This document shows, one piece after another, positions 14,605 to 44,566 of a stretch of DNA of 64,000 bases. The notes beneath the pieces were generated by a model. The model did no database searches. It saw only the letters and a program-made list of their open reading frames with translations, and was not told the origin of the DNA. Made by a program: the position numbers and the translations under genes. Position 1 is the first letter of the stretch, and the number at the start of each line of letters is the position of its first letter. The stretch spans positions 65,034-129,033 of the forward strand of contig CALCZR010000058.1 in NCBI GenBank assembly GCA_937903325.1, given 5' to 3'. This stretch comes from an uncultured Candidatus Saccharibacteria bacterium. GTDB lineage: Bacteria; Patescibacteriota; Saccharimonadia; Saccharimonadales; AWTP1-31.

Positions 14605-14818
14605 ACTTACCTACTGATACCCAACGTATCTTTCTTGAAATGCCCCTACATATTCCTCCTTTCTTTTCTCCCTCTCTTTCTATATAAATATAGAAGAGAA
14701 CAGATTAATTGAGTGATGTAGGGTTATGAGTAGATGTTAGGTGTAAGTTTTGTGAGTTGTATGGTCTGTAGTGTTGAGTGTAGTTTTGGTGAATTAGTGA
14801 GTACCGGTAAGTGATGAT

Positions 14819-15655
14819 ATGGGTGAAGTTAAGTATCGAAGACCATTGAATAAACAGCAGATTAGAACTCTACATTTACTGTATTGGTACCGCTTTTGTA
14901 CGAGCAAACAACTTGCTAGATCTTTTGACAAAGCCAGTCCCAAAGCCATCCAAAACAAACTGCAGATACTGGAAGCCCAAGAACTTATTAGCAAGCGCTA
15001 CGATAAGTCCTACAAGTTAGCTGGACGATCTGCTGAATACTTCATTACCCCAAAAGGTGCTCGAGCACTGGAAAAAGCCAACCCTGATTCAACTAATGCT
15101 TGGGCAACTAAGAGCCTGTATAAGAATAAAACAGTTTCAGACGACTTTCTCAAACACTGTATCGCTGTAACTGAAACGGCTCAAAGACTCCGAGAAATAT
15201 ACGGTGACAACAAAAAACTACACATACTCCCTAAAAGTTATATGGCGCAATGCGACCATTACCCAAGCTGGACACCCGACCTACATCTTGAGATACATGG
15301 CACAGGTGAAACACCAACCAAACACTACTTTCTAGATGTATGGGATGACACCAAACCATTCTTTGTAAGTGTCAGGAAAACCAGAAACTACGCTAACTTC
15401 AAGGATAGTGGTGACTGGCAAGAAGACGAACCGTACCCAGCAATCTCAGCTATCTGTAAAGATGAACGAACCCAGAAGAAGCTAAACCGACAAATGAAAC
15501 GTATCTCCGACGAACAATGGGATGATGAGTGGGTGTTTACAACCACGACCAGGCAACAGCTCGAGCATGCAACAAGAGCAATTGAGAAGATATGGTATGT
15601 CGTCGGAATGGGTGAGCAGAGGTCGCTAATACGAGTACAAGATACCGAAGATTAG
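14819..15655 (+). CDS. replication-relaxation-family-like protein (winged-helix N-terminus)
   Basis: LNKQQIRTLHLLYWYRFCTSKQLARSF..LQILEAQELISKRY matches the replication-relaxation pattern by eye. A paralogous gene occupies the same position in transposon 2. Confidence 0.65.
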   Translation: MGEVKYRRPLNKQQIRTLHLLYWYRFCTSKQLARSFDKASPKAIQNKLQILEAQELISKRYDKSYKLAGRSAEYFITPKGARALEKANPDSTNAWATKSLYKNKTVSDDFLKHCIAVTETAQRLREIYGDNKKLHILPKSYMAQCDHYPSWTPDLHLEIHGTGETPTKHYFLDVWDDTKPFFVSVRKTRNYANFKDSGDWQEDEPYPAISAICKDERTQKKLNRQMKRISDEQWDDEWVFTTTTRQQLEHATRAIEKIWYVVGMGEQRSLIRVQDTED

Positions 15656-29240: not shown

Positions 29241-29609
29241 CTAACTTGTATACTTCTTGACCGCATCAACGATCTGGTAGGGGCTGTAGTCAGCCTTTAG
29301 GAGGTAATCCGTAGCGCCAAGCTTCTTAGAAGCTGTCACAACTTGTTCGTTATCTATATTACTAAGCACCAAGATTACCGCCTTGGGTAGCTTCAATGCC
29401 TTGTACTGCTTAAGAAAATCTATGCCGTCCTGCTCAGGCATGAGCATATCCACGAAAATAACGTCTGGTTCTTCCTTTTGAGCTATCTCTAGAGCATCCG
29501 TAACTCGATTGGCAACGAAGGCCTTGTGCCCAGCCTTTTCCAGTACCTGACTATATACTTCCGTCAGAACTTGTTCGTCGTCTATTACTAATATCTTCAT
29601 AGCACTCAT
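29241..29609 (-). CDS. single-domain response regulator (CheY-like receiver only)
   Basis: Acidic pocket in ILVIDDE, phospho-acceptor Asp in IFVDMLMP, and Lys in LLKAD. No output domain. Confidence 0.9.
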   Translation of the reverse strand: MSAMKILVIDDEQVLTEVYSQVLEKAGHKAFVANRVTDALEIAQKEEPDVIFVDMLMPEQDGIDFLKQYKALKLPKAVILVLSNIDNEQVVTASKKLGATDYLLKADYSPYQIVDAVKKYTS

Positions 29610-29612
29610 GGT

Positions 29613-30857
29613 CTAGTCGCGGTGTAGCGCCTCAATTGGATCGATCATAGTAGCTCTTCGAGCAGGGAAGAAGACGACAATAAGGCCGATAAGAGCACTG
29701 AGAGCAAGAGTTATGAGTATCAGCTCGGCCGAGAAGCTAAAGGCCGTTATATGGTCCTTAACGCCGTTATGCTGGGCGTACCTATTGAGTGCAAAGTTAC
29801 CGATAACCGACAAGGTTATAGCCCCGATAACACCGAATAATCCACCAAGGAACGATAGCAGTACCGCTTCAGTTGTAAATAGCCGACGGATGTCTTGCTT
29901 ACGAGCACCAAGCGAGATCATGAGAGCAATCTCACGAGTTCGCTCAATGAGCGAAATGGTCAGAGTGTTAAACATACCCAAGATCGCAATCACAATACCG
30001 ATACCGCCAAAGCCTACAAAGACGTATCGCAGCAGATTAAAGACCTGGTCAATCTGTTCTAGCGTGTCTTGCGGTGAGGTTGTCGTAAAGCCAAGGCTCT
30101 CAATAGCCTTGCGCACACTGTTGATCTTGTCCTTGTCATTAACCACTACTTTCAGCTGGGTGGCGTCTGCTGTTCCGACTTGTTCAAAGTTCTTAGCAGC
30201 GATAAAAGATTCAGCCCGTGACTCACTCTCGAATACCGCCCCAATAACAAAGTCTTTGGTAACAGTCTTCTTTTCACCCTTGTCATTCACCGTATCGAAC
30301 GAAAGATTAACTGACTTATCGATAGCCTTACTGTTATCACTAAAGCCCAGCACGTTAGCTAATGAATTATTAATAATAATCTTGTTGCCGGTATCGGCAT
30401 CAAAGTTATTACCAGCTGTATACTTCAGCCCGCTTAGATCTACAAAATTGGTATCAGCACCATATACTACCGTCTCGGTCTGGGAGCTCTGCTGCTTAAT
30501 CTTACCAGCGGTGTTATACGACCTACCCATCTCATCAACGCCGCCCATACCACTAATCTGGTTGTAAGCTTCGGTGTTTAGCTTGAGGATCTTAGAACGC
30601 GGGGACGTAACATCTATGGTTTGCACTGAACTAGATCCTACCACTTGCTGGCTTACGAGGTTCTGCAGTCCAAAACCAAATGAGAAGAGGAACACAATAG
30701 AACCAATACCAATAATCACAGCTAGAACGGTGAGCATAGTACGGAGCTTGTTAAAGAACAAGTTCTTGTAGGCTAGCCGCATAAGAATATGGAACTGAAT
30801 AACACCACGCTTGTCGGCGGCACGAAATTCACTACCGTTACGTACGTTATTAACCAC
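29613..30857 (-). CDS. MacB/FtsX-type ABC transporter permease with large extracytoplasmic domain
   Basis: NKLRTMLTVLAVIIGIGS in TM1, then a ~230-aa loop, then the FtsX domain (LISLGARKQDIRRLF). The GTG at 30857 has GAGGTGAT upstream; an alternative ATG lies at 30782. Confidence 0.9.
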   Translation of the reverse strand: MVNNVRNGSEFRAADKRGVIQFHILMRLAYKNLFFNKLRTMLTVLAVIIGIGSIVFLFSFGFGLQNLVSQQVVGSSSVQTIDVTSPRSKILKLNTEAYNQISGMGGVDEMGRSYNTAGKIKQQSSQTETVVYGADTNFVDLSGLKYTAGNNFDADTGNKIIINNSLANVLGFSDNSKAIDKSVNLSFDTVNDKGEKKTVTKDFVIGAVFESESRAESFIAAKNFEQVGTADATQLKVVVNDKDKINSVRKAIESLGFTTTSPQDTLEQIDQVFNLLRYVFVGFGGIGIVIAILGMFNTLTISLIERTREIALMISLGARKQDIRRLFTTEAVLLSFLGGLFGVIGAITLSVIGNFALNRYAQHNGVKDHITAFSFSAELILITLALSALIGLIVVFFPARRATMIDPIEALHRD

Positions 30858-31635
30858 CGATCACCTCTTTTGCTGACTTACTTAGCTTCATCATACTAGC
30901 AACTTTGTTAAACTGCTGGTTAATGTCCGCACGGTAACCACCTTGATCCTCGGTCACGACACCGTCACTAATATACAAACGGTGGTCACTAAGCGGCAGA
31001 TAGTCGCTGTTGTGAGTAACCAGAATAATAGTGGACTGGTGTTCGCTCTTGTAGCTGGTAATAAGCCGCATAATCATATCACCATTCTTGCTATCGAGGT
31101 TTCCGCTTGGCTCGTCAGCTACGAGTAGCAGGGGAACAGAGACCGTGGCACGGGCCATGGAAATACGTTGTTGCTGACCAACAGACAAGACCTGGGGACT
31201 GTAGTTAGCATACTTATCGAGCTCAACACGCTTTAGACTGTCTCGAGCCTCCCTAAAGGCAGCATCCCGATCATGTCCGGACAAGTACAATGGAAGAGCA
31301 ATGTTCTCGAGTACGTTAAGACTGGATACCCAGTTATTGGTCTGGTAGACAGTGCCGAAGTTTCGAGCGCGGAACTTGGCCCGATCGTTCTGGTTAAGCT
31401 TGTATAGGTCTTCGCCGTCCACAATAATCTGCCCAGAACTCGGCGCCAACAGTCCGAGAATCATATTCAGAATCGTCGTCTTACCACTACCGGATGGACC
31501 ATAGATGATCGTGAAGGTATTACGCTCAATCGTAAAGCTCACATCCTTCAGAACTGAAACGGTTCCTTCTTGGGTGGTGTACTGTTTGTTGACATTGACC
31601 AACGAAACAAGAGTATTACTAGCGGGTTTACTCAT
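30850..31635 (-). CDS. ABC transporter ATP-binding protein (MacB/LolD-like)
   Basis: Walker A GPSGSGKTT, Q-loop, signature LSVGQQQR and Walker B LLVADEP. Confidence 0.95.
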   Translation of the reverse strand: MSKPASNTLVSLVNVNKQYTTQEGTVSVLKDVSFTIERNTFTIIYGPSGSGKTTILNMILGLLAPSSGQIIVDGEDLYKLNQNDRAKFRARNFGTVYQTNNWVSSLNVLENIALPLYLSGHDRDAAFREARDSLKRVELDKYANYSPQVLSVGQQQRISMARATVSVPLLLVADEPSGNLDSKNGDMIMRLITSYKSEHQSTIILVTHNSDYLPLSDHRLYISDGVVTEDQGGYRADINQQFNKVASMMKLSKSAKEVIGG

Positions 31636-31676
31636 AGATTAGTACCAGTATATCTGTTAAACGTAAGCATTACCAA

Positions 31677-34600
31677 TTAATTTCGCCTTCCAAATATCGA
31701 CTCAAGGGCATTGAAGATGATAGTAAAGACATTTTCAGAGGCGCGGCCCACTACTACCGTCTGATTATCTGAATGTGAAATATTACGCGCTTTATCTGCC
31801 GAGAAGACTTGCAAGTGGTAGATACTCGAAACCTGTACGTCAGACAACACTACGACATGGTCAGTCGTCAGGTTATTGTCTTCGCCAGTACGATTCGTGA
31901 GTGCACCCGTTTGGCCAATACCGTAGCCTACCTGGCTAGTAGATAGCTCATCCGTCTTCCAGGAAACCACTACTTGACCTCGAGCCTCTGAGCCAGTTCC
32001 ACGAACAGACGATTCTATAACTACCTCAGATATCTTTGGTGGGCGAGTATCCAGGGCCGTCTTAAAGGTCCGTACTTCGGAGCTCGCACTAATACCTTCG
32101 GCATTCACCGATATAGCCTGTAAGGCGTAGTCAGTGTCATCGACAAGGCCAGTAAGGACAATGCTGTGCTGCGTGACAAGTGCGGAATCAACAGCGTCCT
32201 TAGGTGGTGTGCTCTGTGGTCCGTAACTTACCCGCGAAGTAGCCGGTACGTTGGTATCCCAGGTAATCTGCTGAGTAGAACTTGGAGCGTCTGCGACGGG
32301 CTGGAATCGCAAGTTTGTAATCTTTGGTCGTGCCTTGGTGGTAAAGGTTTGTACATCCTTGATATACAAGTTGCCGTCAGCGTCCACTAGATCAATCCGG
32401 AAATAGAACTTCGTATCGTCAGATAAACCGTCAAGGTTAACTGAGTACGTAGAAGTTGTAGCTGCCGTATCAATAGTCTTAACAGCACCGAAGGACTCAC
32501 TGGCACCGTAACTCAGTCGAGCCTGACTAGCCCCCGTAACTGAGAAGGAAATAGTTGCACCGGAAACACTAACACCTGTTATCGCCACTTCACCAACATT
32601 CGGAGCGGGAAGCGTCGTAAAGCTCTTCTCCGGGCTGGTGCCCGTATTACCATCACTGTCCGTCCACTTGGTTACATAGTAGTAGGTCGTAGAAGGCTGC
32701 AGGTTAGTCAGATCTACCTGGTGGTCAGGTTGTTGGGCAGAATTACCGATCTCTTGCTGGGCGTATTGCCCCGGCGCTGTGCCAATAGCGACCTTACTGT
32801 CGCTGTCTCTATCTGTTGTCCAGGTGATGGTAGCCTTCTTGGGGCCAATATTCGTTGCCTTTGGTTGGCCAGAAACTGTTAAGTTAGCAGGACTAGTGAA
32901 GCGACCGGTTGGCTTCTTGGTTGCCACGTTGCTCGGAACACCACAGTTATTAGCGTTGTCACAAGCTCGGACGTAGTAATAGTAGGTAATTTGGGACAGG
33001 CCAGCATCGATAAAGCTCAGGTTAGAAGGTGAGGTAGTACCCACCTGCGTGAAGCTAACATTGTCGGTGGAACGATAAATCTTGTACGAGGCTATGCCAC
33101 TCCCTGGCTGCGACGGCGCTACCCAAGAGCTTGCCAATTTCCAACTGGAGGTTGCTCGTGTAGAGACATCTGCTAGATCCATGTCGGTAGGAGCACCAGG
33201 AGCCGTCGTACTGGCAGAGAAGGTGACGGTAGCAACATTGGCCGCACTAAAGTTACCCGGCTGGTCCTTGGCAACTATCCGCATCGTGTTTACACCTTGC
33301 TCAGTAGCGTACGGTCCGGCCGCTAGCTGAGTTACGCCAGCACCCGTCCAGTGACAATTACTCTGGTCATCTTCAATGGGCTCATTCACTGTCCAACAAT
33401 AGTTTATATCTGGGGTCGACCCAGAGAAACTAGAGGGAGCATCCCACGTAAACGAGAAATTATTACTAGTACTGCTAGATGGGGTAACCTGTAGGTTCTG
33501 TGGTGCAGAAGGAGCCTGCACAGAAATGACCACGTAAGGGGCTGATGAAGCCATTCCTTCGACATTACCGGCATTATCTACTACGGCCATAAGCACCCCG
33601 TTAACTCCAGAACCGCCTGTAGTGCCGTCATCGAGTCGAGCAGCGTCGGCTGCCACAGTGGTAAAGCCTTGAGCACTCATAGGCAATACATCACTAGTAT
33701 CCCGTAAATCCCCCGACGTATGGTTTGCACCGTACCAGTTCATATCGTCTTCGTCACATCCTGCAAAGTTTTCGTCTACCTTTGCAACACAGTACTTAGC
33801 ACCAGCGATACCTGAGTGTTCATCAACAGCTTCAAGTAGTCCCGGCACAATGGTCCATGCAGTGGTGAATATCTTGCTGTTCTGGACCGTACCCGGCGTG
33901 TTATAGAAAACCATGCCGTCCGGTTCTTCATCATCAAACCTAAAACTGGTAGTAATCAGCGGATCACTCTGCGCGTTGCCAGCGTTGTCTACTGCAGCGA
34001 TTCTAACGTAGTAGCGCTCACCAGACGTCATGTTGCCCGGCGCCGCCTGAGCAAGATCTAGATACGTGTTACGCGTACTAAAACCACAATCCCCTACGAT
34101 ATAATTATTAAGCGCGTCTGAACCCAATACACCCTGTTCACCTAGACTACCCGGGTCTTCCTGTGTACCTACATACACACAGTAGCCAGCGATACCTGAA
34201 TCAGCATCAGTTGCGGCCGTCCAACTTACATAGGGCTTGAGTCGGACCCAACCATCTGGTGCTACAACCGGACCAGAGCTAGATTTTTTAATAGTCAGAC
34301 CACTTGGTACGCCTGGGGCATTCGTGTCATTAGAGTACTCGATACTAACGGAGTTAACACTAATGTCAGGCGTAGCCTCGTCGGACAGAATAATCTGGTA
34401 CTGCACATACCGCTCATTCAATGCTACACATGCAGTAGCCGTGATAGCATCGCCACTAGCAAGTAGTGGGCAGTCATTAAAGTCCTTAGCACCAGCCATA
34501 GAGTCGCTTGCTGAAGTACGTACCCGTATACCCGATATTCCTGTCCCACTTGTATTGTAGATGACATTACCGAAGTAGGGGTGTTCGTCAAAGTCAACGA

Positions 34601-36257
34601 TCGCAGAGGTGAGTCGGCCAACACCACCACCGTTAAATTCGGTCAATCCCAATGAGGACACGATCACTCTATGGGTATAAGAATAGGCTATGATCGACCT
34701 AAGTTTCGATTGTCTACCACCACCACTGAAACTAATACTTTGATTCACCGAGTAACCAAAAGAACGACTGAGACCCGGTATTGTCTGGTATGTTAAGCCG
34801 CCATTACTGCTATATGTCAGGTCTGCGCCATATCCCGATTGACTACCGTAACGGACCATACGGAATCGGTACCATGTATCAAGTTGAAAATGTGTCGCTC
34901 GGAGCTGATCCCAGTTGTAGCTCGTTCCTTGGGGACCGCTTATGTGGAAATAATTCCCATCATCACAGCCGATGTCCACTCCAAATATAAGCTTGTACCC
35001 AGCATAGTTACTAGAATTACAGTCGCCAGGTGCTACCTGAAGGTCGAATTCTACGACTGCATCTTTTGAGTCATCCAAGCCATTCATGGCATTGAAACTC
35101 GCACCGTCATACAATGTTGCAGTATCCCCGGTAATACTAAACCTGGCAGGGTCGTCCCACTGGTACCACTGCCAAGGACTTGGCAGACCCGTACCGAGAT
35201 TAGCATCGTTATAGTACGTACCCAGCAACCCTTGAACCGTGTTACTAGTATCGGGGTCTACGGCCGTTAGTACACTAGAGGGCACCGTCTCAATCGAGAT
35301 AGCGTTACTTGACCAACGTAACTGTGCATACCCAGGACCAGACTGCTGCTGATACTCTATACGTATATCATGCTCTCCTGCCGTAAGAGAGATGATCTGA
35401 GCGGTCGAGGTAGGACCGCCCCAGCTTCCAAACAGCGGGTTGCCGTCCACGAACATTCGGTTCCCATCGTCACTCGATATGTAAAACGTATAATTATCGT
35501 CAGCCGGGATAGTAATCTTACCCGTCCAACGCACACTCCAGTTATCGGCGCCAACTCCAGTAATTGGTGACGTACCGTTCAAGGCAAAATCAATGTTTGC
35601 GTCAATCCTTGTTGCTGCCGGGGTACCCGCACTTGCAAAATTATCCTGGAAGAGCAGGCTGCTTTTGGCTGACCCCGTGCTAGCAGCCCCATTGCCAAAA
35701 TACACATACATATTGTTGGCTCCACTGTAAATATTAGTAGGGCTAACAACATACTCTGCAGAGACCCCGTCGGTCTTAGCGTTTAGATAGAAACCGACAT
35801 CGTATGCACCGTCCTGACTTACAAACCGAATGTCGTCAAAGTCATTCTGCATAGCCGCATCGTATGGAATTGTTATACGGAACGCTGTCGAGGCAAGGAA
35901 ACCATTGTCCAAATTAGTTGCGGTAAACAATTTACGACGAGTCCAACTGCTATTACACTTAGCCGTATTACACCAGTCAGCATTAACCTGATTACCAATC
36001 GCAAGTGTCGCTCCAGCATCCATATTAGTGGCTTCGCTATACTGAGAACTTGGATCAGTTCCAACGCCGCCCGACCAGTCATTCTGTGTATAGGTACTTA
36101 ACGCACTTACCGTTGCCTTATCGATAAGGGGGAAGGCGATCGTTGCGAGCAACACGACGGCCAGACCACCTGCCACAACTCGCTTACTTCGCTCGACCGC
36201 TCGAACTCTTCGTCCAGCCTGCAAGAATTTCTGACCAATAGTACGTACTAATTTCAT
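31677..36257 (-). CDS. giant membrane-anchored surface protein (1526 aa): DUF2341-like, PA14, LamG-like and multiple FN3 domains
   Basis: N-terminal TM helix and a QNDWSGGVG motif. DFDDIRF...YVYFGN is DUF2341-like. NWSVRWTGKI..YTFYISSDDGNRMFVDG..IRIEYQQ is PA14. FN3 repeats include YKIYRSTDN and ITWTTDRDSDSKV. Confidence 0.9.
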   Translation of the reverse strand: MKLVRTIGQKFLQAGRRVRAVERSKRVVAGGLAVVLLATIAFPLIDKATVSALSTYTQNDWSGGVGTDPSSQYSEATNMDAGATLAIGNQVNADWCNTAKCNSSWTRRKLFTATNLDNGFLASTAFRITIPYDAAMQNDFDDIRFVSQDGAYDVGFYLNAKTDGVSAEYVVSPTNIYSGANNMYVYFGNGAASTGSAKSSLLFQDNFASAGTPAATRIDANIDFALNGTSPITGVGADNWSVRWTGKITIPADDNYTFYISSDDGNRMFVDGNPLFGSWGGPTSTAQIISLTAGEHDIRIEYQQQSGPGYAQLRWSSNAISIETVPSSVLTAVDPDTSNTVQGLLGTYYNDANLGTGLPSPWQWYQWDDPARFSITGDTATLYDGASFNAMNGLDDSKDAVVEFDLQVAPGDCNSSNYAGYKLIFGVDIGCDDGNYFHISGPQGTSYNWDQLRATHFQLDTWYRFRMVRYGSQSGYGADLTYSSNGGLTYQTIPGLSRSFGYSVNQSISFSGGGRQSKLRSIIAYSYTHRVIVSSLGLTEFNGGGVGRLTSAIVDFDEHPYFGNVIYNTSGTGISGIRVRTSASDSMAGAKDFNDCPLLASGDAITATACVALNERYVQYQIILSDEATPDISVNSVSIEYSNDTNAPGVPSGLTIKKSSSGPVVAPDGWVRLKPYVSWTAATDADSGIAGYCVYVGTQEDPGSLGEQGVLGSDALNNYIVGDCGFSTRNTYLDLAQAAPGNMTSGERYYVRIAAVDNAGNAQSDPLITTSFRFDDEEPDGMVFYNTPGTVQNSKIFTTAWTIVPGLLEAVDEHSGIAGAKYCVAKVDENFAGCDEDDMNWYGANHTSGDLRDTSDVLPMSAQGFTTVAADAARLDDGTTGGSGVNGVLMAVVDNAGNVEGMASSAPYVVISVQAPSAPQNLQVTPSSSTSNNFSFTWDAPSSFSGSTPDINYCWTVNEPIEDDQSNCHWTGAGVTQLAAGPYATEQGVNTMRIVAKDQPGNFSAANVATVTFSASTTAPGAPTDMDLADVSTRATSSWKLASSWVAPSQPGSGIASYKIYRSTDNVSFTQVGTTSPSNLSFIDAGLSQITYYYYVRACDNANNCGVPSNVATKKPTGRFTSPANLTVSGQPKATNIGPKKATITWTTDRDSDSKVAIGTAPGQYAQQEIGNSAQQPDHQVDLTNLQPSTTYYYVTKWTDSDGNTGTSPEKSFTTLPAPNVGEVAITGVSVSGATISFSVTGASQARLSYGASESFGAVKTIDTAATTSTYSVNLDGLSDDTKFYFRIDLVDADGNLYIKDVQTFTTKARPKITNLRFQPVADAPSSTQQITWDTNVPATSRVSYGPQSTPPKDAVDSALVTQHSIVLTGLVDDTDYALQAISVNAEGISASSEVRTFKTALDTRPPKISEVVIESSVRGTGSEARGQVVVSWKTDELSTSQVGYGIGQTGALTNRTGEDNNLTTDHVVVLSDVQVSSIYHLQVFSADKARNISHSDNQTVVVGRASENVFTIIFNALESIFGRRN
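32590..33205. repeat. high-identity segment shared with the upstream paralog (partner 37165..37790)
   Basis: About 620 bp that align with only scattered mismatches by eye. The encoded FN3 region is nearly identical (ADMDLADVS.RATSSWKLASSW...ITWTTDRDSDSKVAIGTAPGQYAQQEIGNS). Confidence 0.8.
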
Positions 36258-39200
36258 TCCTTGACTCCAAATATTTTCTGCAGGGCGTTATATATAATAC
36301 TGAATACATTGTCTGAACCGCGTCCGATAATCACAGTCTGCGGATCAGAGACCCTGGCGTTAACCGCTTTATCTCGGCTGACGGGCTGCACGCGGTAAAT
36401 ACTCGAAGTAGGAATATCTGACACGATAACGGTGTGCTCAGTGGTTAATCGAGCGTCTTCCCCAGTTTTGTTGTTAAGCGATCCTTCCTGCCCCTGGGCG
36501 TAGTTGACCTGACTCGTAGAAGGTTCATCTGTCTTCCATGAGACCACTATCTGTCCTCGGGCCTGTAAACCACTACCACGAATAGTTGATTCTATCTGCA
36601 CGTCACTAATCTTTGGAGGGCGAGTATCAAGTGCAGTATGAAAATTCTGTACGTCTGAAGCAGCCCCGTTACCAAGTGCATCTGTACCGGCAGCTACCAG
36701 GGTATAGTCCTTGTCATCCTGGAGGTTCTCCATGGTAATAACGTGTTCTGTCGTCTGCTTGGCATCTAGCTGTTCTGTCTGCTTGGCACCCTTGACGCCG
36801 AAAGTGATACGAGAATCTGTTGCTACGTTGGTTGTCCAGCTAACCTGTAAGGTACTCTTTGGTGCGTCAGTAACAGGCTGGAAACGAATATTAGTAATGG
36901 CCGGTCGGGGTGGAGTAGTGAAGCTATACACATTGCTGTCGTATTGCTGTCCGTCGATGTCAAACATAAGGAGACGGTAGTTGTACTTAGTGCCGTCTTT
37001 TAAGTCCGGCAAACGTACAGTGTACTGAGAAGAGCGGGTTGCGGTATTAACCGTTAGTGAGCGGTCATAGTTGTCGTTGGCTCCGTAGAGGACCACTACT
37101 TTAGTGGCATTAGCTGCTGTAAAGGTTAGGTCTCCGTAGGTATTAGTTAGACCAGAAACGCTAACTTCGCCAACACTTGGCGCAGCCAAGGTTGTGAAGC
37201 TCTTCTCGCTACTTACACCAGTGTTGCCATCCGTATCAGTCCATTTAGCAACATAGTAATATGTTGTACCTGGTTGTAGGTTGGTCAGGTCTACTTGGTG
37301 GTCAGGTTGTTGGGTGGAATTACCGATCTCTTGCTGGGCGTATTGTCCGGGCGCTGTACCAATAGCGACCTTGCTGTCGCTATCTCGGTCGGTTGTCCAG
37401 GTAATAGTAGCCTTCTTTGGACCAATATTAGTGGCTTTTGGCTGACCAGAGACCGTTAGATTAGCGGGGCTTGTAAACCGTCCTGTCGGTTTCTTGCTGG
37501 CAGTATTGCTTGGGATACCGCAGTTATTAGCGTTATCGCAAGCCCGGACGTAGTAGTAATACGTAACCTGGGAAAGGCCAGCATCGATAAAGCTCAAGTT
37601 AGAAGGTGAAGTAGTACCTATTTGCGAGAAGTTAACATTATCTGTAGAACGGTAAATCTTGTACGAAGCTACACCGCTGCCGGGTTGCGTTGGGGCAGAC
37701 CAGGAACTAGCCAATTTCCAACTGGAGGTTGCCCGACTGGAAACATCTGCCAGGTCCATATCGGCAGGGGCACCAGGAGCGGAAGTATTAGCAGTGAAGG
37801 TTACACTGGCCGCATTATTAGACGAAAAGTTTCCTGTCTGGTCTTTAGCCATGACGTAGAGAGTGTTTGTTCCTTGTTGCGTAGCATACGCACCAGCCGC
37901 CAGTTGCGTAATACCCGCACCAGTCCAGTGGCAGTTTGATCCGTTGGCCGCAATAGGAGTGTTGATACTGTAGCAGTAGTCCATCTGATTAAGCGGACCT
38001 GTGAACGTTTCAGGCGGAGACCAAGAAAAACTAAAGTTGTTCTGTGCACTGCTAATCGGCGATGCCTGGAGATTTCGCGGTACAGAAGGCGGATTTTGGG
38101 TAATAAATATGTACCCAGCTGAGCCGTCACCCGCTCGTGCATTACCAACATTATCGATAGCAGCAACATAGATAATATTAAAGCCAATACCGTTACCGAA
38201 GGCTCCGCCGTCGCTACCGTCATCCAGTTCACCTGCAGCTTCAGGACCAACGTCTATTCGACTAGCGGAGAAGGGTATAGTGTTTGTAGAGACGTTGGCA
38301 TAGCCCTTGGTTTTGTCCGCACCAAACCAGTTTGGAGCACTCGGATCACAGTAATCATCCGGATCAATACCGCCTTCACCGGTATACTTAGCGATACAAT
38401 ATTTGAGACCTGCTACGCCTGAGGCACTATCATAGAGCGAGCCCAGAGGCGGTCCTATCCAAGAAACGGTGAAATTCTTACTACCAAGAGTACCTGATGG
38501 GAATGAGAATATGGTACGAACTTCTGGGTGCTGAGTGTCAGCTTTTAACGTTAGTGTACTCGAGGCTCCGATATTGCCAAGGTTATCTACCGGAGCTACT
38601 ACGAAGTAGTACGTATCACCATTATTAAGACTAAAATTATTAAACTCCTGTTTGTCTAGAGAGGTACCCGCCCTGGCGTACGCACATGAGGTTTGTATAG
38701 GGCTAGTGGTGCTATTCGAAAGCATTCCGCCCGTTTGAGTCAACGACGGTGACGAGTCTTGCCCAAGATACAAACAGTACCCAGCCAAGCCGGAGCCACC
38801 ATTTTCATCCGTTGAAGCATCCCAGCTGAAGTAAGGCCTGTCCTGGACCCAACCACCGTCTGCTACTGTGAAGCCATTTACGCTGGTCTTCATAGTTAAG
38901 CCGGTAATACTGCTTGGCGCAGTCACATCGGAGTCATACTGCAAGGTAATACTCGTAAACTCGGCGTCCCGAGCATTATTTGTTGTTAGCATAATCTGGT
39001 ACTGCATGTATGCTTTGCCTGTAGTTACACAACTTGAATTCTGAATGTCCTGCTCGTCATACAAGGTATTACAGGTGGCAAAGTCAGCGGCGTCACTCAT
39101 ATCAGATTGATTCGCTGTACGTATCTTAACGCCAGCCTGGCCGTCGCTATAGCCTAAGAAGATCTTCCCAAAATGTGCTCCGCTAGGGAGGGGGATCGCC

Positions 39201-40465
39201 GCTGAATTGAGTGTTCCTGCATACCCGTTGTACTCTTCGGTAACGCCAGCCTGAGCAGTTACCCCCAATGCCGAGTGATATGCGACTACATTGCGAATTA
39301 GCTTCTCCGCATTAGCACCACTCATATTAAAATATATGTAATCGGTATCACCATACTGCATCGGCAGATCAAGGCCAGTAATCTTTGTGTAGGTCTGGCC
39401 ACCGTCGGTACTAAAATAGTGGGTGTTGTAGTGGTAAGAGGGCCATTGGCCATTCGTACGCTCAACAACACTCCTCACAATCTTAAATCGATACCAGGTA
39501 TTGTAGTTAAAATCGAGCGCACTGGCCATTGCACTGTTAGCATAATCAAACTGGACACCCATGCTACTAGATACCCCAGTATTTCTATTACAACGGTGGT
39601 CGGCATAGCTATTAAACTGTATCCTTCCGTTCATACCGAACCCATCCGTATTAAAGTCTGAGGCGCCCCGACAGTCATATTGACTGCCATCAATCTGCAC
39701 ATCGAATTCAAGTACAGACTCCTGTCCAGTAGTATATTGTCCGGTTGTAGGCAGATTATCATATGCGTGGAGCCGGACAGTATCACCAGATAGTGTCGCA
39801 TTAGTACCGCCCCACTGTGGACCTAGTACTCCGTCACTAAAGTTGTCCTGCAGGTCTACGATTGATTTCGTAGACAACGAGCTTGCACCGGTATTACCGA
39901 AGTACATAGCAATGCGTGAAAGACCATATGGAATATCTGCAACCTTGACGTACACAACCGCCGAAACACCGTCCGTCTTGCTTTGTACCCAATATGGTAC
40001 ATCTTGGTCGCCCGTTTCGTTGGTAAAACGTAGGTCATCAAAGTCAGCCTGCATGGCAGCATCGTACGATACATTAATCTTTACCGTTTCGTTGGTATAG
40101 GAAGGTACTCCATTACTAAGAGTATTGAATTGAATCATCTTTCGATATGTCCAGCTACTACTACATTCGCTTGTTGCACACCACGCTACTCCAGCCGTAT
40201 TACCAACGGTCAAAGTGCTACCATCAGTAATATTATCTGCCGATGCATACTGATTTATCGGGTTGGCCCCAACTCCACCGGACCAATCGTTCTGGACAAA
40301 ATCCACGTAGGCGTCAGCTCGGCTATAGTAGAGAACAGGGGCAACAATCGTAGCAATAAGCAGCAGAGCGAGCGCACCGGCAGCCATCCGGCTCTTTGGC
40401 CGCTTCAGAGCATTCCGAAGCTTATTCCAATTACCGTTTAACCGTTGTGCCATCTTCAGCTTCAT
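36254..40465 (-). CDS. giant membrane-anchored surface protein (1403 aa): DUF2341-like, LamG-like and multiple FN3 domains
   Basis: Paralog of 31677..36257 with the same N-terminal TM helix, QNDWSGGVG and DFDDLRF..MYFGN. It lacks the PA14 segment. ATGA overlaps at both gene junctions. Confidence 0.9.
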   Translation of the reverse strand: MKLKMAQRLNGNWNKLRNALKRPKSRMAAGALALLLIATIVAPVLYYSRADAYVDFVQNDWSGGVGANPINQYASADNITDGSTLTVGNTAGVAWCATSECSSSWTYRKMIQFNTLSNGVPSYTNETVKINVSYDAAMQADFDDLRFTNETGDQDVPYWVQSKTDGVSAVVYVKVADIPYGLSRIAMYFGNTGASSLSTKSIVDLQDNFSDGVLGPQWGGTNATLSGDTVRLHAYDNLPTTGQYTTGQESVLEFDVQIDGSQYDCRGASDFNTDGFGMNGRIQFNSYADHRCNRNTGVSSSMGVQFDYANSAMASALDFNYNTWYRFKIVRSVVERTNGQWPSYHYNTHYFSTDGGQTYTKITGLDLPMQYGDTDYIYFNMSGANAEKLIRNVVAYHSALGVTAQAGVTEEYNGYAGTLNSAAIPLPSGAHFGKIFLGYSDGQAGVKIRTANQSDMSDAADFATCNTLYDEQDIQNSSCVTTGKAYMQYQIMLTTNNARDAEFTSITLQYDSDVTAPSSITGLTMKTSVNGFTVADGGWVQDRPYFSWDASTDENGGSGLAGYCLYLGQDSSPSLTQTGGMLSNSTTSPIQTSCAYARAGTSLDKQEFNNFSLNNGDTYYFVVAPVDNLGNIGASSTLTLKADTQHPEVRTIFSFPSGTLGSKNFTVSWIGPPLGSLYDSASGVAGLKYCIAKYTGEGGIDPDDYCDPSAPNWFGADKTKGYANVSTNTIPFSASRIDVGPEAAGELDDGSDGGAFGNGIGFNIIYVAAIDNVGNARAGDGSAGYIFITQNPPSVPRNLQASPISSAQNNFSFSWSPPETFTGPLNQMDYCYSINTPIAANGSNCHWTGAGITQLAAGAYATQQGTNTLYVMAKDQTGNFSSNNAASVTFTANTSAPGAPADMDLADVSSRATSSWKLASSWSAPTQPGSGVASYKIYRSTDNVNFSQIGTTSPSNLSFIDAGLSQVTYYYYVRACDNANNCGIPSNTASKKPTGRFTSPANLTVSGQPKATNIGPKKATITWTTDRDSDSKVAIGTAPGQYAQQEIGNSTQQPDHQVDLTNLQPGTTYYYVAKWTDTDGNTGVSSEKSFTTLAAPSVGEVSVSGLTNTYGDLTFTAANATKVVVLYGANDNYDRSLTVNTATRSSQYTVRLPDLKDGTKYNYRLLMFDIDGQQYDSNVYSFTTPPRPAITNIRFQPVTDAPKSTLQVSWTTNVATDSRITFGVKGAKQTEQLDAKQTTEHVITMENLQDDKDYTLVAAGTDALGNGAASDVQNFHTALDTRPPKISDVQIESTIRGSGLQARGQIVVSWKTDEPSTSQVNYAQGQEGSLNNKTGEDARLTTEHTVIVSDIPTSSIYRVQPVSRDKAVNARVSDPQTVIIGRGSDNVFSIIYNALQKIFGVKE
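37165..37790. repeat. high-identity segment shared with the downstream paralog (partner 32590..33205)
   Basis: See the partner entry at 32590..33205. Confidence 0.8.
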
Positions 40466-41133
40466 AGGGTATATGCCTTCACAATTCCCGCCGTAGGTCG
40501 GACGCTTAGTAGATTAGTCCCCAGGGCTTTACTGGACATCAGGAAGGCAGTGAAATACTGCGTTATTTCGCCGCGCCTATCTGCTGGCAATGCAGAGACG
40601 TTAGTTGTAGTAGAGGCAAGTTGGGCCGCTTTCTTGTTTGAGTAATACTCTATGCGCAGCGACGATGGCTTAGGAATACTCGTCTGCGTCTCATACTCAA
40701 CATCTTTGCCTTCTGCTTCCTTATTGCCAATCGCATAGCTATCCTTGTAGTGCTCGAGTAGGGCATCGTTTAGCTTTGTAATTTTAGCTGAATCAGTATC
40801 TGAGGCATAGACCGTTACCGTAAGTGTATTAGCTGTTCTTCGCTGGCCCACGAGCTCGTATCCAGAAGTGCCGACTGGGGCAGGAATAGGGTTCTCCAAT
40901 TTCTGAGCAGGCAATGTCTGTACCTTTGCTGCTGGTTTGCTAGTTTTCTTTGCTTCCTTCTTACCACCTGGCCATACCAGCAATCCAACCCCAGCAACCA
41001 CCAGCACAACTAATGCTGCGTATATGGGGTAAATTCTACGTTTACGAAGAAGCTTAATATGTACTGCCTTATGCCAATAATGGCGATATCCAGTGGCGAG
41101 TAGCAGTACCACAACAATGCCTAATACAATCAA
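40462..41133 (-). CDS. membrane-anchored hypothetical protein; first gene of the giant-protein operon
   Basis: 223 aa with two N-terminal hydrophobic segments. TTG start at 41133. Its stop overlaps the next gene's ATG (ATGA). Confidence 0.55.
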   Translation of the reverse strand: MIVLGIVVVLLLATGYRHYWHKAVHIKLLRKRRIYPIYAALVVLVVAGVGLLVWPGGKKEAKKTSKPAAKVQTLPAQKLENPIPAPVGTSGYELVGQRRTANTLTVTVYASDTDSAKITKLNDALLEHYKDSYAIGNKEAEGKDVEYETQTSIPKPSSLRIEYYSNKKAAQLASTTTNVSALPADRRGEITQYFTAFLMSSKALGTNLLSVRPTAGIVKAYTL

Positions 41134-41192: not shown

Positions 41193-42068
41193 ATGAGCTT
41201 GCTAGACTTCCAGAACCAATTCAAGACTGAAGAAGCCTGTCACACATTCCTTGAGGAACAACGCTGGAAGAATGGCCGTTTTTGCCCTCATTGTGGCACG
41301 TATGAGACGTATAAGTTTAAAGACGGCAAACTATTCAAGTGTCAGGACTGTAAAAAACAGTTCACTGTTAAGGTTGGTACCATATTTAGCGATAGTCACG
41401 TCCCGCTGACTAAATGGTTCTACGCGATTTATCTTAATACCTCCCTCAAAAAGGGCATTTCCTCAATCCAACTAAGCAAGTATCTCGGTATTACTCAAAA
41501 ATCAGCCTGGTTTATGCTCCAGCGCATTCGTTACGGTGTTGAAGCTGCTGGGCGCAGCGACCTACTAAATAACATTGTTGAAGTGGATGAAACCTATGTT
41601 GGTGGTAAACAAACGGGTGCACGTCGTGGCCCCGCCGATAAGGCTGTGGTCTTCGGTGCAGTTGAGCGTGGCGGTAAAGCCATGATTAAACATGTACCAA
41701 GTTCAGGCGTGCGTGTACTCATACCTGAGATTCATAAGAACATTAGTCCTGAAGCTACTATATATTCTGATCAATACGGGTCATACAAAAGCCTAAAGCG
41801 TCGTGGCTATACACATACTACCGTTAACCACTCAAAGCTGGAGTTTGCTCGCGGGCTAGTTCACACAAACACAATTGAAGGAGCTTGGGCACACTTCAAG
41901 TTAGGCATCGCAGCCATTTACCTAGGCGTTAGCGTTAAGCATTTACAGCTTTACTGTAGTGAGTTTGAATACCGCTATAACACCAAAGAGATGACTGACT
42001 ACGAACGATTCACGAGTTGGTTTGGTAACTGCCGAGGCCGTGTTACCTACAAAAAACTAATAGCTTAA
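41193..42068 (+). CDS. IS1595-family (ISXO2-like) DDE transposase
   Basis: Zinc ribbon CPHCG..CQDC, then GISSIQLSKYLGITQKSAWFMLQRIR, DETYVGG, IYSDQ and NTIEGAWAHFK. About half the residues match the transposon 1 transposase by eye. Promoter layout: TTGACA, 17 nt, TACACT, 6 nt, ATG. Confidence 0.9.
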   Translation: MSLLDFQNQFKTEEACHTFLEEQRWKNGRFCPHCGTYETYKFKDGKLFKCQDCKKQFTVKVGTIFSDSHVPLTKWFYAIYLNTSLKKGISSIQLSKYLGITQKSAWFMLQRIRYGVEAAGRSDLLNNIVEVDETYVGGKQTGARRGPADKAVVFGAVERGGKAMIKHVPSSGVRVLIPEIHKNISPEATIYSDQYGSYKSLKRRGYTHTTVNHSKLEFARGLVHTNTIEGAWAHFKLGIAAIYLGVSVKHLQLYCSEFEYRYNTKEMTDYERFTSWFGNCRGRVTYKKLIA

Positions 42069-42206
42069 TCCTCCAAAACTGCCATTTTTATTGCTATTGT
42101 TCTTTGCCCCCATGGGCGAGGGCAAGAATGCGCTTGTGTCAAACTGTTAATTTCAGAATATATTGGTACCTACCTTTAAATAATACGGGTAGGAGGGTTT
42201 GGCAAA

Positions 42207-43070
42207 ATGAAACTAACGCAAATTCCAAAAATAACCTATAAACAAAGAACAATACTAGATCTCATATATACCCATAGATTCCTTACTAGAATACAAATAC
42301 AGACATTCCTAAAACATAAAGATAAAAAGACTATTAACCTGTGGCTTAAAGATCTTAGAGACAAAGAATATATAAATTGGATCTACAATAAAGATCACTT
42401 TGCTGAGAAAACTAAACCAGCTATCTACTACTTAGGCATTAATGGTATACGGCATATGCAGAATATGGATTTCCATCCAGACAAAGAAATTCATAAACGC
42501 TACCGGGAACACGAACGCAGCCAGGGCTTTATTGATCGTAGCCTTCTGCTGGCAGAAGTCTGCTTAGAGCTTGATGACGAACGAAACGGCAGCTACTACA
42601 TGACAACACGGTACTACTACGAGACTGAGGCCGATTACCGTAGTGAGATGCGTTACCATTTCTTGAGCGACAACGAGCTAATCCACCCCGATATATGTAT
42701 TGCTCAGTCAGAGGGTGATACAGATGACAGCATTGGCGATCCCGACACCACCGTAGCAAGCTACTTACTGGAGATCTTTGATGCTACATTGCCGAGGTAC
42801 CGTTTACGCAACAAACTGAAGAAGTACGTACAATATCTAGAGGAAGAATTAGACGAATGGGATGAACAGACGGGCAAAGATCCAAGACCGACTATATTAC
42901 TGGTCTGTGCTAGCCTCACAGACCTCATCTACGCTAAACGTAGAACCAGAGGGCTGTTGGCAGAAATCTGGGAGTATGATGACGAAGAAAGACCGCAAGT
43001 GCGGTTTACGACTGTAGGGAATCTCAAAGACAATGGCGTACTTTCCGAGGAGAGTTGGGAGACGGCGTGA
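42207..43070 (+). CDS. replication-relaxation-family-like protein
   Basis: ITYKQRTILDLIYTHRFLTRIQIQTFL..WLKDLRDKEYI (winged-helix pattern). AGGAGG Shine-Dalgarno site upstream. Same position as 14819..15655 in transposon 1. Confidence 0.7.
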   Translation: MKLTQIPKITYKQRTILDLIYTHRFLTRIQIQTFLKHKDKKTINLWLKDLRDKEYINWIYNKDHFAEKTKPAIYYLGINGIRHMQNMDFHPDKEIHKRYREHERSQGFIDRSLLLAEVCLELDDERNGSYYMTTRYYYETEADYRSEMRYHFLSDNELIHPDICIAQSEGDTDDSIGDPDTTVASYLLEIFDATLPRYRLRNKLKKYVQYLEEELDEWDEQTGKDPRPTILLVCASLTDLIYAKRRTRGLLAEIWEYDDEERPQVRFTTVGNLKDNGVLSEESWETA

Positions 43071-43114: not shown

Positions 43115-44446
43115 CTAGAACCTTTTGATACTCCCGTGGTTATTTCTTCTCAGTACAGTAATACTCAGACGATATCGTAGTAAGGGTAAGGTGACTATTT
43201 TGATGTGGTGGCCAAAGGTATAAGGAATAGTCGAGTCTTCCTCAGTAAGTGGTTTCTTATGACGTCGGTAGTCTATATAGATATATACCGTTAAAGCCAC
43301 TAACAAGCCAATGAAGAGTAGACTTGGAAGAAGAACGCCGCCAGTAACTGCTAATGTTGGCTGTTTTGTATCGGGGCTGGTAGGACCCGTTCCTGGGTTT
43401 GGTGTTGGCGTCGGGCTGGGTTCTGGCTCTGGTTCGGGATCTGGGATGAGGCGAGATACACCAATCTTATTCACGCCTGGAGCGGATTCTACAAACCAAA
43501 TACTGCCGTCGGTGCCTGCGGCAATACTATTGGGATATGATGCTGGCGTTGGAATATCATACTCAGTGACCGTACCAGAGGTAGTGATCATAGCTACCTT
43601 GTTATTAAATAGTTCGGTTACCCAAAGATTGCCGTCTGAACCTACCGTAATGTTTCTGTAATAACCAAATGTTTCACCCGTCAATCCTGGGACTGCAGTG
43701 AAGTTTCCATCAACGGTAATCTTTCCAACTTGATAGATGCCTGTACCTGCTACACTGACCCATAGATTACCATCTGGGCCTTGGGTAATGCCAGATGGAT
43801 ACCCGCTTCCACTCGGCAGGCTGTACAGTGTGACGTTTCCATCAACGGTGATCTTTCCAACTTCCTGCGTTCCAAATTTGGTAAACCACAGATTTCCATC
43901 CGGACCGGTTGTTATGGTACCTAGATCAAACGTACCGGTATTAGCAACGGGATACTCGGTAACCACTCCGGCAGTAGTCATTTTACTTATCTTCCCTTCC
44001 TCTGACTGGGTAAACCACAGATTTCCATCCGGACCGGTTGTTATGCTATTTAAGTATGCATTAAGGTTGCCGACGGGATATTCAGTAACAACTCCTGAAG
44101 TAGTGATCTTACCTATTTTATCTATATTCCTTTCTACAAACCACAAATTACTATCCGGGCCAACGGTTATCTCGTTTAACCCGGAACTTGGGGTTGTGAC
44201 TGGATACTTCGTTATGCTTCCGCTAGGCGTAATCACCCCGATCTCGTTAGAACCTACATCGGTAAACCACATATTATTATCGGGGCCACGAACAATTGAC
44301 CCAAGGCCTACGTTGTCGCCACTGACAGGATATTCTTGAATTTCACGTCCTGCGGCGTAGACGGCAGGGAGCAACAATGATGCTGAAAGAATCATGCAAA
44401 ACGCCAGAAGCGATAAGCTGACAATCCGATGTTTCATTGTAATCAT
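43115..44446 (-). CDS. secreted seven-repeat beta-propeller protein (Vgb/streptogramin-lyase-like repeats) with LAVTG-type anchor
   Basis: Signal peptide, then seven G[PST]D[GSN][NS][LMI]W[FV] repeats and a Pro-rich linker (PEPEPEPSPTPTP). The end is LAVTG, a TM helix and RRHKK. I chose the ATG at 44446; the track's TTG is at 44482. Confidence 0.8.
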   Translation of the reverse strand: MITMKHRIVSLSLLAFCMILSASLLLPAVYAAGREIQEYPVSGDNVGLGSIVRGPDNNMWFTDVGSNEIGVITPSGSITKYPVTTPSSGLNEITVGPDSNLWFVERNIDKIGKITTSGVVTEYPVGNLNAYLNSITTGPDGNLWFTQSEEGKISKMTTAGVVTEYPVANTGTFDLGTITTGPDGNLWFTKFGTQEVGKITVDGNVTLYSLPSGSGYPSGITQGPDGNLWVSVAGTGIYQVGKITVDGNFTAVPGLTGETFGYYRNITVGSDGNLWVTELFNNKVAMITTSGTVTEYDIPTPASYPNSIAAGTDGSIWFVESAPGVNKIGVSRLIPDPEPEPEPSPTPTPNPGTGPTSPDTKQPTLAVTGGVLLPSLLFIGLLVALTVYIYIDYRRHKKPLTEEDSTIPYTFGHHIKIVTLPLLRYRLSITVLRRNNHGSIKRF

Positions 44447-44566
44447 ATCCCTTATGGTATTTGATGGGTAGAGACTCGTCAATGAAGTAGCATACTAGAG
44501 CATCAGACTTGATGCAACATACAAATATGCTTATACTTAATGCTAAAGATGTGAGGTGAAATAAAT

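Follow-up and report, generated by a model that had tools for sequence, protein, structure and literature searches.

ABC (ATP-binding cassette) transporters of type VII share the MacB fold and work outside the membrane on a partner that defines their function, and new systems of the type are, by accepted practice, classified by identifying this partner (PMC12646458). The product of tesA, encoded beside ybbAP, is for instance a partner that defines the function, BceAB-BceS provides a precedent for a type VII transporter coupled to two-component signalling, and aap/dispersin systems are mentioned among those of the MacB type (PMC12646458). Here we describe a locus from an uncultured Candidatus Saccharibacteria bacterium in which a MacB/FtsX-type transporter is encoded together with two giant, predicted surface proteins rich in FN3 domains. 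The locus lies within a 64-kb stretch of DNA that was analysed as a whole and that we refer to as the window. In our best reading, the locus encodes a type VII ABC system whose class of partner and whose C-terminal signature are both new.

Patescibacteria, Saccharibacteria among them, live in attachment to host cells, and their giant surface proteins are routinely proposed to be adhesins. To our knowledge, there is no account of how such proteins are fixed to the cell or controlled. Large Patescibacteria surface proteins containing FN3 or DUF2341 domains have been noted as candidate adhesins (PMC11809585, PMC13059738), and transposon sequencing (Tn-seq) in Southlakia has pointed to essential adhesin-like proteins (PMC10633639); these three papers do not link such proteins to MacB-type transporters. 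Targeted searches of the searchable literature turned up no published description of a giant-MacB system, in line with an initial annotation of this DNA that knew of no described system of this composition. The near-constant pairing of giant and transporter genes in Saccharibacteria suggests a so far undescribed way to mount or operate surface fibres, which may be used for host attachment. For the study of episymbiosis, the unit offers a concrete handle in the form of a tail signature that marks client giants and a dedicated subfamily of MacB-type ABC transporters, and for the study of ABC transporters it extends the type VII family, itself classified by partners, by a new class of partner.

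Open reading frame (ORF) calls on the window place six genes on the minus strand, encoding a small membrane protein, giant protein 1, giant protein 2, an ABC ATPase, a permease and a single-domain receiver (Table 1). Coordinates, order, strand and the junctions between the genes, which we read directly, are all as the initial annotation had them. The genes for the small protein and giant 1, and those for giants 1 and 2, meet in ATGA overlaps (40462/40465 and 36254/36257, respectively). The ATPase and permease genes overlap by 8 nt (GTGGTTAA), and gaps of 41 nt and 3 nt separate giant 2 from the ATPase and the permease from the receiver. A permease of identical sequence, in the same gene order, is also found on metagenome contigs. 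What did not survive comparison with other genomes is the further proposal of a six-gene system, as the conserved core consists only of the giant or giants, the ATPase and the permease.

Table 1. Features of the giant/ABC operon in the window and of the proteins that it encodes.
Feature	Coordinates	Strand	Description
Small membrane protein	40462-41133	-	223 aa from a TTG start; 216 aa in public gene calls
Giant protein 1	36254-40465	-	1403 aa
Giant 1, predicted Sec signal peptide	40310-40465	-	aa 1-52; basic n-region, hydrophobic core, ADA before YVDFVQNDWSGG
Giant 1, DUF2341	39830-40045	-	aa 141-212; 46.4 bits against a cut-off of 23.4 (Pfam PF10102)
Giant 1, conserved C-terminal stalk	36257-38128	-	aa ~780-1403; common to all 65 complete giants compared
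Giant 1, terminal module	36257-36634	-	aa 1278-1403; ALDTRPPKIS linker, FN3 sandwich, terminal amphipathic helix
Giant 1, terminal helix	36269-36307	-	aa ~1387-1399
Giant protein 2	31677-36257	-	1526 aa
Giant 2, PA14	35280-35651	-	aa 203-326; 89 bits, E 3.5e-25
Giant 2, terminal module	31680-32057	-	aa 1401-1526; FN3 and tail ...VVVGRASENVFTIIFNALESIFGRRN; 224 bits to the tail-module profile
Giant 2/ATPase intergenic gap	31636-31676	-	41 nt; weak sigma-70-like TTGGTA-18-TATACT
ABC ATPase	30850-31635	-	261 aa
Permease	29613-30857	-	414 aa, GTG start
Single-domain receiver	29241-29609	-	122 aa

The evidence that giants and transporter belong together comes from gene linkage in both directions. 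The first neighbourhoods considered, those of permease homologues at 63%, 60% and 48% identity, all contain giant(s), ATPase and permease, and among these three the receiver is present only at 63% and 60%. The forward scan, in which an alignment of the permease was run against one genome per species, covered 79 loci, with every ORF annotated by means of the window proteins. It contains 86 permease instances, 80 of which have enough upstream DNA for the test, and the relatives found derive overwhelmingly from Saccharibacteria/Saccharimonadia genomes. A giant bearing the conserved C-terminal tail that we describe below lies directly upstream of the ATPase gene, and on the same strand, in 79 of the 80 testable Saccharibacteria permease loci; in the sole exception, L059, the ATPase gene is truncated. 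The complete giants of the scanned loci range from 615 to 2,150 aa, and ten loci have two giants in tandem, as in the window. Other MacB-type pairs encoded in the same loci, which score 58-124 bits to the window permease versus at least 264 bits for the linked ones, have no giant.

The reverse scan started from an alignment of the C-terminal ~140 aa of the giants, searched against metagenome contigs, and gave 83 ORFs with the tail module, 81 of them testable. An ABC gene follows in 73 (the permease is also present in 61, and the contig ends first in 12), a second giant follows in five, and three have no recognisable neighbour. The total linkage in this direction, counting an ABC gene or a second giant as the next gene, is therefore 78 of 81. 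The linkage is near-obligate even though the permeases concerned have an identity of only 40-60%. The description of the giants and the MacB/FtsX-type ABC genes as a linked unit is kept on these counts. The initial annotation had also envisaged, as an outcome that would speak against such a unit, relatives in which the ABC and receiver genes lie apart from the giants; this separation was found for the receiver, which is mostly unlinked, and not for the ABC genes. Judged by gene linkage, giants and MacB/FtsX-type transporter truly belong together as a cognate unit that is conserved, and we consider it very probable that they are functionally coupled.

The members of the unit also diverge together. 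Pairwise distances over 77 triads were compared for tail module, permease and ATPase; when permeases and tails are clustered independently, their groups agree with an adjusted Rand index of 0.75 at both k = 3 and k = 4. One permease clade pairs with DUF2341-type giants whose tails read GRG(S/T)(D/E)N(V/I)F, and another with giants of ~2,000 aa that have GRASDSVL tails. Two full triads occur in tandem at L014:69-19397, L015:205-14737, L020:424-10113 and L029:2753-21207, in the order giant(s)-ATPase-permease, then giant-ATPase-permease. At L014 and L015 each of the tandem triads falls in a different paired tail/permease clade, which implies that duplication took in the entire unit and that its members stayed matched afterwards. 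By these comparisons, a giant and its transporter are passed on and preserved together as cognate partners.

The transporter itself can be placed with some precision. The ATPase matches Pfam ABC_tran at 105 bits, and its translation contains a Walker A motif (GPSGSGKT), an ABC signature (LSVGQQQR) and a Walker B motif (LLVADEP). Its nearest NCBIfam families are the nucleotide-binding domains (NBDs) of LolD, FtsE, YbbA and MacB, all under the equivalog cut-offs, and on these matches it is an NBD of the MacB/LolD/FtsE-like class; bacteriocin and darobactin export ATPases are also among the best matches, again below cut-offs in every case. The permease is laid out as a first transmembrane helix (TM1), a MacB_PCD extracytoplasmic domain (aa 40-254, nt 30096-30740; 58.6 bits against a cut-off of 27) and an FtsX three-helix C-terminal domain (aa 283-405; 59.4 bits against a cut-off of 25.5). 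The closest solved sequences are YtrF (9o9x, 2.8e-22), next MacB (5gko, 5nik and 5lil) and then LolE. The ABC ATPase and MacB-like permease of the initial annotation are thus borne out by the Pfam ABC_tran, MacB_PCD and FtsX matches, and on sequence criteria the pair belongs to the type VII ABC (MacB/FtsX-fold) superfamily. The models of its described members score as follows: 83-151 bits against a cut-off of 966 for the NCBIfam MacB equivalog, 182 against 264.85 for FtsE (TIGR02673), 39-44 against 225-255 for the FtsX models, 189.8 against 307.75 for LolD and 74.6 against 362.45 for the lolCE model.

Comparison with these members brings out what is particular to the locus. FtsEX, acting with EnvC, PcsB or RipC, and YbbAP-TesA have a permease of the same fold class, with four TM helices, the first two (TM1 and TM2) separated by a large extracytoplasmic domain, and they likewise combine a separate MacB/LolD/FtsE-like NBD with a nearby partner gene and with work expected outside the membrane. 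Unlike in those systems, the partner here is an FN3 fibre of 1,000-2,150 aa (the wider family reaches 6,321 aa) with lectin-like heads and no enzyme or activator domain, its presumed recognition element is a C-terminal FN3 domain with an amphipathic helix, the linkage is near-obligate, and duplication affects whole units. MacAB-TolC and the Aat dispersin pump share the MacB_PCD and FtsX organisation of the permease, and MacB structures are among its best matches in the Protein Data Bank (PDB). The substrates of MacB-type pumps are first exported by Sec and are then handled from the periplasmic side. In contrast to MacAB-TolC, the NBD is unfused, there is a single membrane, and the presumed client is a giant fibre rather than a small toxin or peptide; moreover, the operon of the window and the annotated neighbourhoods L001-L007 contain neither a membrane-fusion adaptor gene (MacA/HlyD) nor a TolC-like gene.

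Giants 1 and 2 are paralogues with 48% identity overall. Giant 1 consists of a signal peptide, the sequence QNDWSGGVG, a DUF2341 domain, a ~200-aa module without a family, an FN3-type stalk and a C-terminal tail of FN3 domain plus helix. The QNDWSGGVG motif is indeed present in both giants, and the long FN3 arrays ascribed to them are seen as fn3 and Pur_ac_phosph_N matches in both. The hydrophobic segment at the N-terminus of the giants, which had been described as a TM helix, is most likely a cleaved signal. Among 48 giants that carry the QxDWxG motif, 47 show signal-peptide features: the n-region is basic, the core (15-mer) is hydrophobic, and a small-x-small site (ARA, AKA, ASA, ADA, VSA) lies 4-8 residues ahead of that motif. 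Since an AxA signal-peptidase motif follows the hydrophobic segment in accordance with the -3/-1 rule, the N-terminal segment is probably a classical Sec signal peptide with a predicted cleavage site. Its removal would shift the likely cell-proximal end of the giant to the C-terminus.

The heads that follow the signal are variable. All but one of 23 related heads (22 of 23) contain DUF2341. In giant 2 it is not listed at E <= 0.01, yet the region aligns to giant 1 at 43% identity, and thus the DUF2341-like module initially assigned to both giants stands by Pfam for giant 1 and only through this alignment for giant 2. After DUF2341 the heads are modular, with PA14 in window giant 2 (a domain overlooked in the initial description of its head), NHL propellers in three relatives, or the ~200-aa module without a family. 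The LamG-like jelly roll of the initial annotation is a putative assignment: Pfam scans gave no match to the LamG family in either window giant or in the 23 related heads, and Laminin_G_3 is found in a longer relative (L045). A profile of the 23 heads has no match in the PDB, an AlphaFold2 model of the giant 1 head from a 4-sequence alignment has a mean pLDDT of 45, and a word-indexed homologue search with this head (aa 1-513) returned two weak matches and missed the query itself. No hydrolase, LytM, CHAP, coiled-coil activator or lipid-binding domain was detected in the giants by Pfam scans, and LPXTG and SLH wall-anchoring motifs are absent from the giants and from conserved neighbours.

A metagenome protein of 552 aa (P0001) combines a signal peptide and QTDWSGGVG with the '...RVRTS...YVQYQ...' module found at aa ~420-510 of giant 1, and ends with a C-terminal TM anchor in place of the FN3 stalk and tail. 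Its sequence suggests that motif and module together make up a single domain, in which DUF2341 and the binding modules are insertions.

In contrast to the heads, the C-terminal part of the giants is common to the entire set compared. The conserved C-terminal domain recognised in the initial annotation is real, but it extends over ~620 aa rather than ~130 aa. In a sliding-window search, 60-aa windows from aa 781 of giant 1 onward match all 33 shorter and all 32 longer giants; windows before about aa 750 match few of the longer giants or none, and the first ~780 aa are kept only in the closer shorter ones, and there not over their full extent. The highest scores across all 65 giants are reached in a block of two FN3 domains (aa ~860-1100 of giant 1, 37164-37886; aa ~983-1223 of giant 2, 32587-33309), which is more constrained than the tail. 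Between the two window giants this block has 73-95% protein identity and a third-codon identity of only 45-57%. The combination of high amino acid identity and low third-codon identity indicates very strong purifying selection on both copies, and recent gene conversion is rejected as the explanation.

The tail module comprises a TALDTRPPKIS linker, an FN3 domain (VSWKTDEPATSQV...LTTEH...SDL...Y) and a terminal helix with the consensus ...QxxIIGR(A/G)SDxV(L/F)xII(F/L)NxLQKIFG. It always stands at the extreme C-terminus, with 1-7 residues beyond FG, and these C-termini have no LPXTG motif. An AlphaFold2 model of the module, built from a 42-sequence alignment, shows an FN3 sandwich and a terminal helix (model residues 134-146) with a pLDDT of 87.7, and a Foldseek search with this model gave only generic FN3 matches. 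The helix is amphipathic, with a hydrophobic moment (muH) of about 0.4 (0.45 in giant 1) that is reached by 0.9% of shuffles and a mean hydrophobicity of ~0.3. The positions of its polar face (N, Q/K, G) and the preceding IIGR are also conserved. This conservation of the polar face suggests that the tail is a protein-recognition element rather than a generic anchor.

The tail also marks a family that is much wider than the loci scanned above. An exhaustive search with a profile of the tail-module alignment over 1.84 billion cluster representatives (50% identity) found 1,985 representatives at E <= 1e-30, many of which are FN3 repeats without the tail. In at least 60 of the best 150 matches the tail is at the extreme C-terminus, in proteins of 962-6,321 aa, and most of those 60 carry a variant, ...LTPxxxESVxxxIxxNFExxFG(W/F).... 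A word-indexed search for the tail profile yielded nothing but pieces of at most 245 aa at contig edges, hence gene contexts were taken from the locus scans. Two contexts were retrieved for variant tails, and both keep the linkage to ABC/MacB genes; giant-ABC linkage therefore persists in these more distant relatives, in one of them with a different gene order. The contig of P0166 has the order ATPase (525 aa), MacB permease, 1627-aa giant, 222-aa tail piece. At L165:893-4099 a triad is interrupted by two genes of the 23S_rRNA_IVP family, and the ATPase is split. As an annotation rule, the combination of the tail with adjacent ABC and MacB_PCD genes would bring together, as members of a single system, proteins labelled 'hypothetical FN3 proteins' or 'ABC transporter permeases' in their thousands.

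We suggest that the unit is a type VII ABC system dedicated to the giant surface protein, its extracytoplasmic partner, and that the transporter provides specific docking, anchoring or actuation of the giant. This reading follows from the near-obligate linkage, the matched divergence, the recognition-like C-terminal module, the Sec signals and the lack of a channel-type exporter, and we give it roughly even chances of being correct. In this model, the giants would be exported by Sec, with the signal peptide cut just ahead of the QxDWSGG motif. The variable N-terminal head would face outward as a ligand- or host-binding end, and the ~620-aa FN3 stalk would run back to the membrane, where it ends in the FN3 domain and amphipathic helix. 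The docking site of the tail would be either the MacB-type extracytoplasmic domain or the outer-leaflet face of the cognate permease. The transporter would then form the membrane base of the fibre, and ATP binding and hydrolysis would drive a mechanotransmission that mounts, holds or re-positions a giant that the transporter does not itself carry across the membrane. A permease dimer could hold one or two giants, which in the window could be the two paralogues. The CheY-like receiver of the window's clade would probably gate the ATPase from the cytoplasmic side, and the 223-aa protein would be a local accessory or unrelated. Among the roles that the initial annotation considered for the transporter, export of the giants across the membrane is unlikely, given their Sec signals and the MacB fold of the permease, and a role in assembly, anchoring or actuation is what we infer.

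Several points weigh against this model. The docking of the tail on the permease, the orientation of the fibre, the ATP-driven action and the target of the receiver are all inferred. The measure of co-divergence cannot tell co-evolution from the shared inheritance of linked genes. The tail helix could simply lie on the membrane, and the transporter could act on the tail only transiently. Cleavage of the signal peptide is a prediction, and an N-terminus kept in the membrane would alter the geometry of the fibre. In addition, there is a weak promoter-like match inside the gap between giant 2 and the ATPase. This match to the consensus is not evidence of a promoter, because such sites in the region are not above shuffles (16 versus 18.5), and the promoter and terminator scans performed no better than chance. 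Finally, the published annotation tables of the cultured oral model Southlakia epibionticum have no DUF2341 or Pur_ac_phosph_N entries, and its FN3 protein SEML1_0890 is only ~195 aa long (PMC10633639). On account of these tables, the giant/ABC system is probably absent from the only relatives that are open to genetics.

The rival explanation that survives best, although we consider it unlikely, is an extract-and-release cycle, similar to that of LolCDE or to a second step of secretion, in which the tail is a sorting signal and the giant a substrate. After export by Sec, the tail helix would hold the giant at the outer leaflet until ATP-driven extraction releases it to the cell wall, a surface layer or the medium. 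The linkage and co-divergence fit this scheme equally well, and the amphipathic tail has the moderate hydrophobic moment that is typical of in-plane anchors. LolCDE is likewise a type VII ABC transporter, it uses ATP to extract an exported protein by means of a membrane-embedded terminal feature, and LolE is a detectable sequence relative of the C-terminal domain of the permease. In our system, however, the terminal feature is an amphipathic helix at the C-terminus and not a lipid at the N-terminus, only one permease gene is present, and the scores to the Lol models are far below the cut-offs. In the inspected neighbourhoods we see no LolA-like gene that could supply an acceptor or chaperone, and the missing LPXTG and SLH motifs leave the giants and their conserved neighbours without a wall anchor of these types. 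Conservation over ~620 aa of stalk also goes far beyond what sorting would require, and the retention of one or two substrate genes with each transporter, even after duplication, is more in keeping with a fixed complex.

The giant adhesins of type I secretion add a further parallel to extract-and-release. The LapA, SiiE and RTX adhesins have giant repetitive genes beside ABC genes, an uncleaved signal at the extreme C-terminus and N-terminal or distal binding modules. The position of an uncleaved C-terminal signal on a substrate gene beside ABC genes is thus a pattern that the two share. Type I secretion itself is a poor fit, given the MacB/FtsX-type permease and the Sec signal peptides of the giants, and no membrane-fusion protein gene was found. 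Its transporters have an exporter fold with a substrate channel, often with C39 or CLD, in place of the MacB/FtsX fold, their substrates have no Sec signals, and neither an outer-membrane component nor RTX repeats are present here.

A bolder version of the docking model, which we regard as quite unlikely, is an ATP-powered surface fibre, phospho-switched in some clades, in which a type VII ABC motor, seated at the foot of an FN3 stalk tens of nanometres long, mechanically extends, retracts or re-orients a lectin-tipped giant. If true, it would be an active grappling or host-docking device, possibly a motility device, of episymbiotic Patescibacteria that is distinct from type IV pili. It would also constitute a new class of surface machine, and the wider tail family, with proteins of up to 6,321 aa, would make it widespread.

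That the giants and the transporter are independent neighbours is improbable. In this case the ABC genes would encode a common MacB-type pump for efflux or resistance, with antimicrobial peptides or lipids as possible examples of its substrates, and this pump would share no more than an operon or regulon with the giants. MacB/FtsX-type pumps of monoderm bacteria are commonly resistance pumps, the matches of the ATPase to NCBIfam export ATPases (below cut-off, as noted above) would fit such a function, and contact between giant and transporter is a proposal of ours. An ordinary pump would not, however, be expected to show two-way, near-obligate linkage across permeases with 40-60% identity, a linkage that survives altered gene order in a distant lineage, or duplication of whole triads with tail types that match the permease clade. 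The other MacB-type pairs of the same genomes provide a direct comparison, and they lack giants.

We also considered a capture device, in which a lectin-like head binds the host envelope and the transporter extracts or inserts host lipids, lipoproteins or glycolipids. Head modules of carbohydrate-binding type, such as the PA14 of the window and the NHL propellers and Laminin_G_3 of relatives, fit this idea, type VII ABC systems handle membrane-embedded hydrophobic molecules (PMC12646458), and Saccharibacteria lack fatty-acid synthesis (PMC10633639) and are lipid-auxotrophic. The FN3 arrays, however, offer no evident lipid conduit, the giants have no detected lipid-binding or hydrolase domain, and the conserved tail would be left unexplained; this entirely conjectural idea is very improbable. 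The least probable alternative, and one that we hardly credit, is divisome-style FtsEX control of a wall hydrolase with the giants as regulated partners: the architecture of a type VII ABC with an extracytoplasmic partner and the closeness to B. subtilis YtrF, which the title of PMC8060467 links to cell-wall thickness, are set against FtsE and FtsX scores far under the cut-offs (182 versus 265 and 39-44 versus 225-255), a full MacB_PCD domain instead of the small FtsX loop, and giants in which Pfam scans find no hydrolase, LytM, CHAP or coiled-coil activator domain.

The receiver is a more peripheral element. It matches Response_reg only (76.7 bits, aa 6-116 of 122), with no output domain, as in the initial description of a CheY-like protein, and its translation contains D10, D11, D54, S83 and K105; by these residues it is a CheY-like single-domain response regulator with an intact phospho-acceptor site. 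It follows the permease on the same strand in seven of 81 testable loci, all from the closest clade (permease at least 57% identical), which makes it a clade-specific accessory instead of the system member that it was first taken to be. In four more loci it is convergent right after the permease, and elsewhere it is absent. These convergent receivers, 1-44 nt past the permease on the opposite strand, are in the distant loci L052, L062, L072 and L083, and the recurrent association of a receiver with the unit may be more than coincidence. BceAB-BceRS shares this tie of a type VII ABC transporter to a two-component element, and in the window's clade the receiver is translationally coupled to the permease. 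BceB, however, has 10 TM helices and a membrane histidine kinase as its partner, whereas the permease here has four, the receiver stands alone with no adjacent kinase, and only a minority of loci have one. The operon contains no histidine kinase. A HisKA/HATPase_c kinase gene that overlaps an OmpR-type regulator gene (53818-55489, minus strand) encodes the only kinase among ~45 Pfam-scanned ORFs of the window, and is a candidate phosphodonor for the orphan receiver.

The small membrane protein, with two hydrophobic segments, is translationally coupled to giant 1 in the window. An iterative search for homologues upstream of giants found only that of its own organism and one marginal match (E 0.0015), and most giants have no small co-directional ORF upstream. 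The protein is therefore not conserved as a member of the unit and is ruled out as a component of the system. Further conserved components downstream are ruled out as well, since the genes past the permease are unrelated between loci; they encode a phosphoketolase, a HerA/TrwB-like ATPase or, in one subclade, an FN3/NIDO protein. The last of these, a protein of ~747 aa right after the permease (L017:7757-10003, L018:2189-4429 and L019:11212-13455), has NIDO, FN3/Ig and CarboxypepD_reg domains in L019, and this domain content suggests a further surface component.

The operon is situated in a segment of ~27 kb that is flanked by two similar gene pairs, each composed of an IS1595-family transposase (DDE_Tnp_IS1595 and zinc ribbon) followed by a Replic_Relax protein (13660-15655 and 41193-43070, both on the plus strand). 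The two Replic_Relax copies are 21% identical and have no DNA repeat in common, and the second pair starts 59 nt from the first ORF of the operon, in divergent orientation. A second FtsX-like permease ORF (63355-63936, minus strand; phmmer 3.3e-13 against the operon permease) is located ~65 nt from the window end; its open frame runs to that end, and its true start may lie beyond it. Just past the second transposase/Replic_Relax pair, at 43115-47365, a gene for a Vgb_lyase-family beta-propeller (455 aa, minus strand) is divergent from a 932-aa ORF that has no Pfam match.

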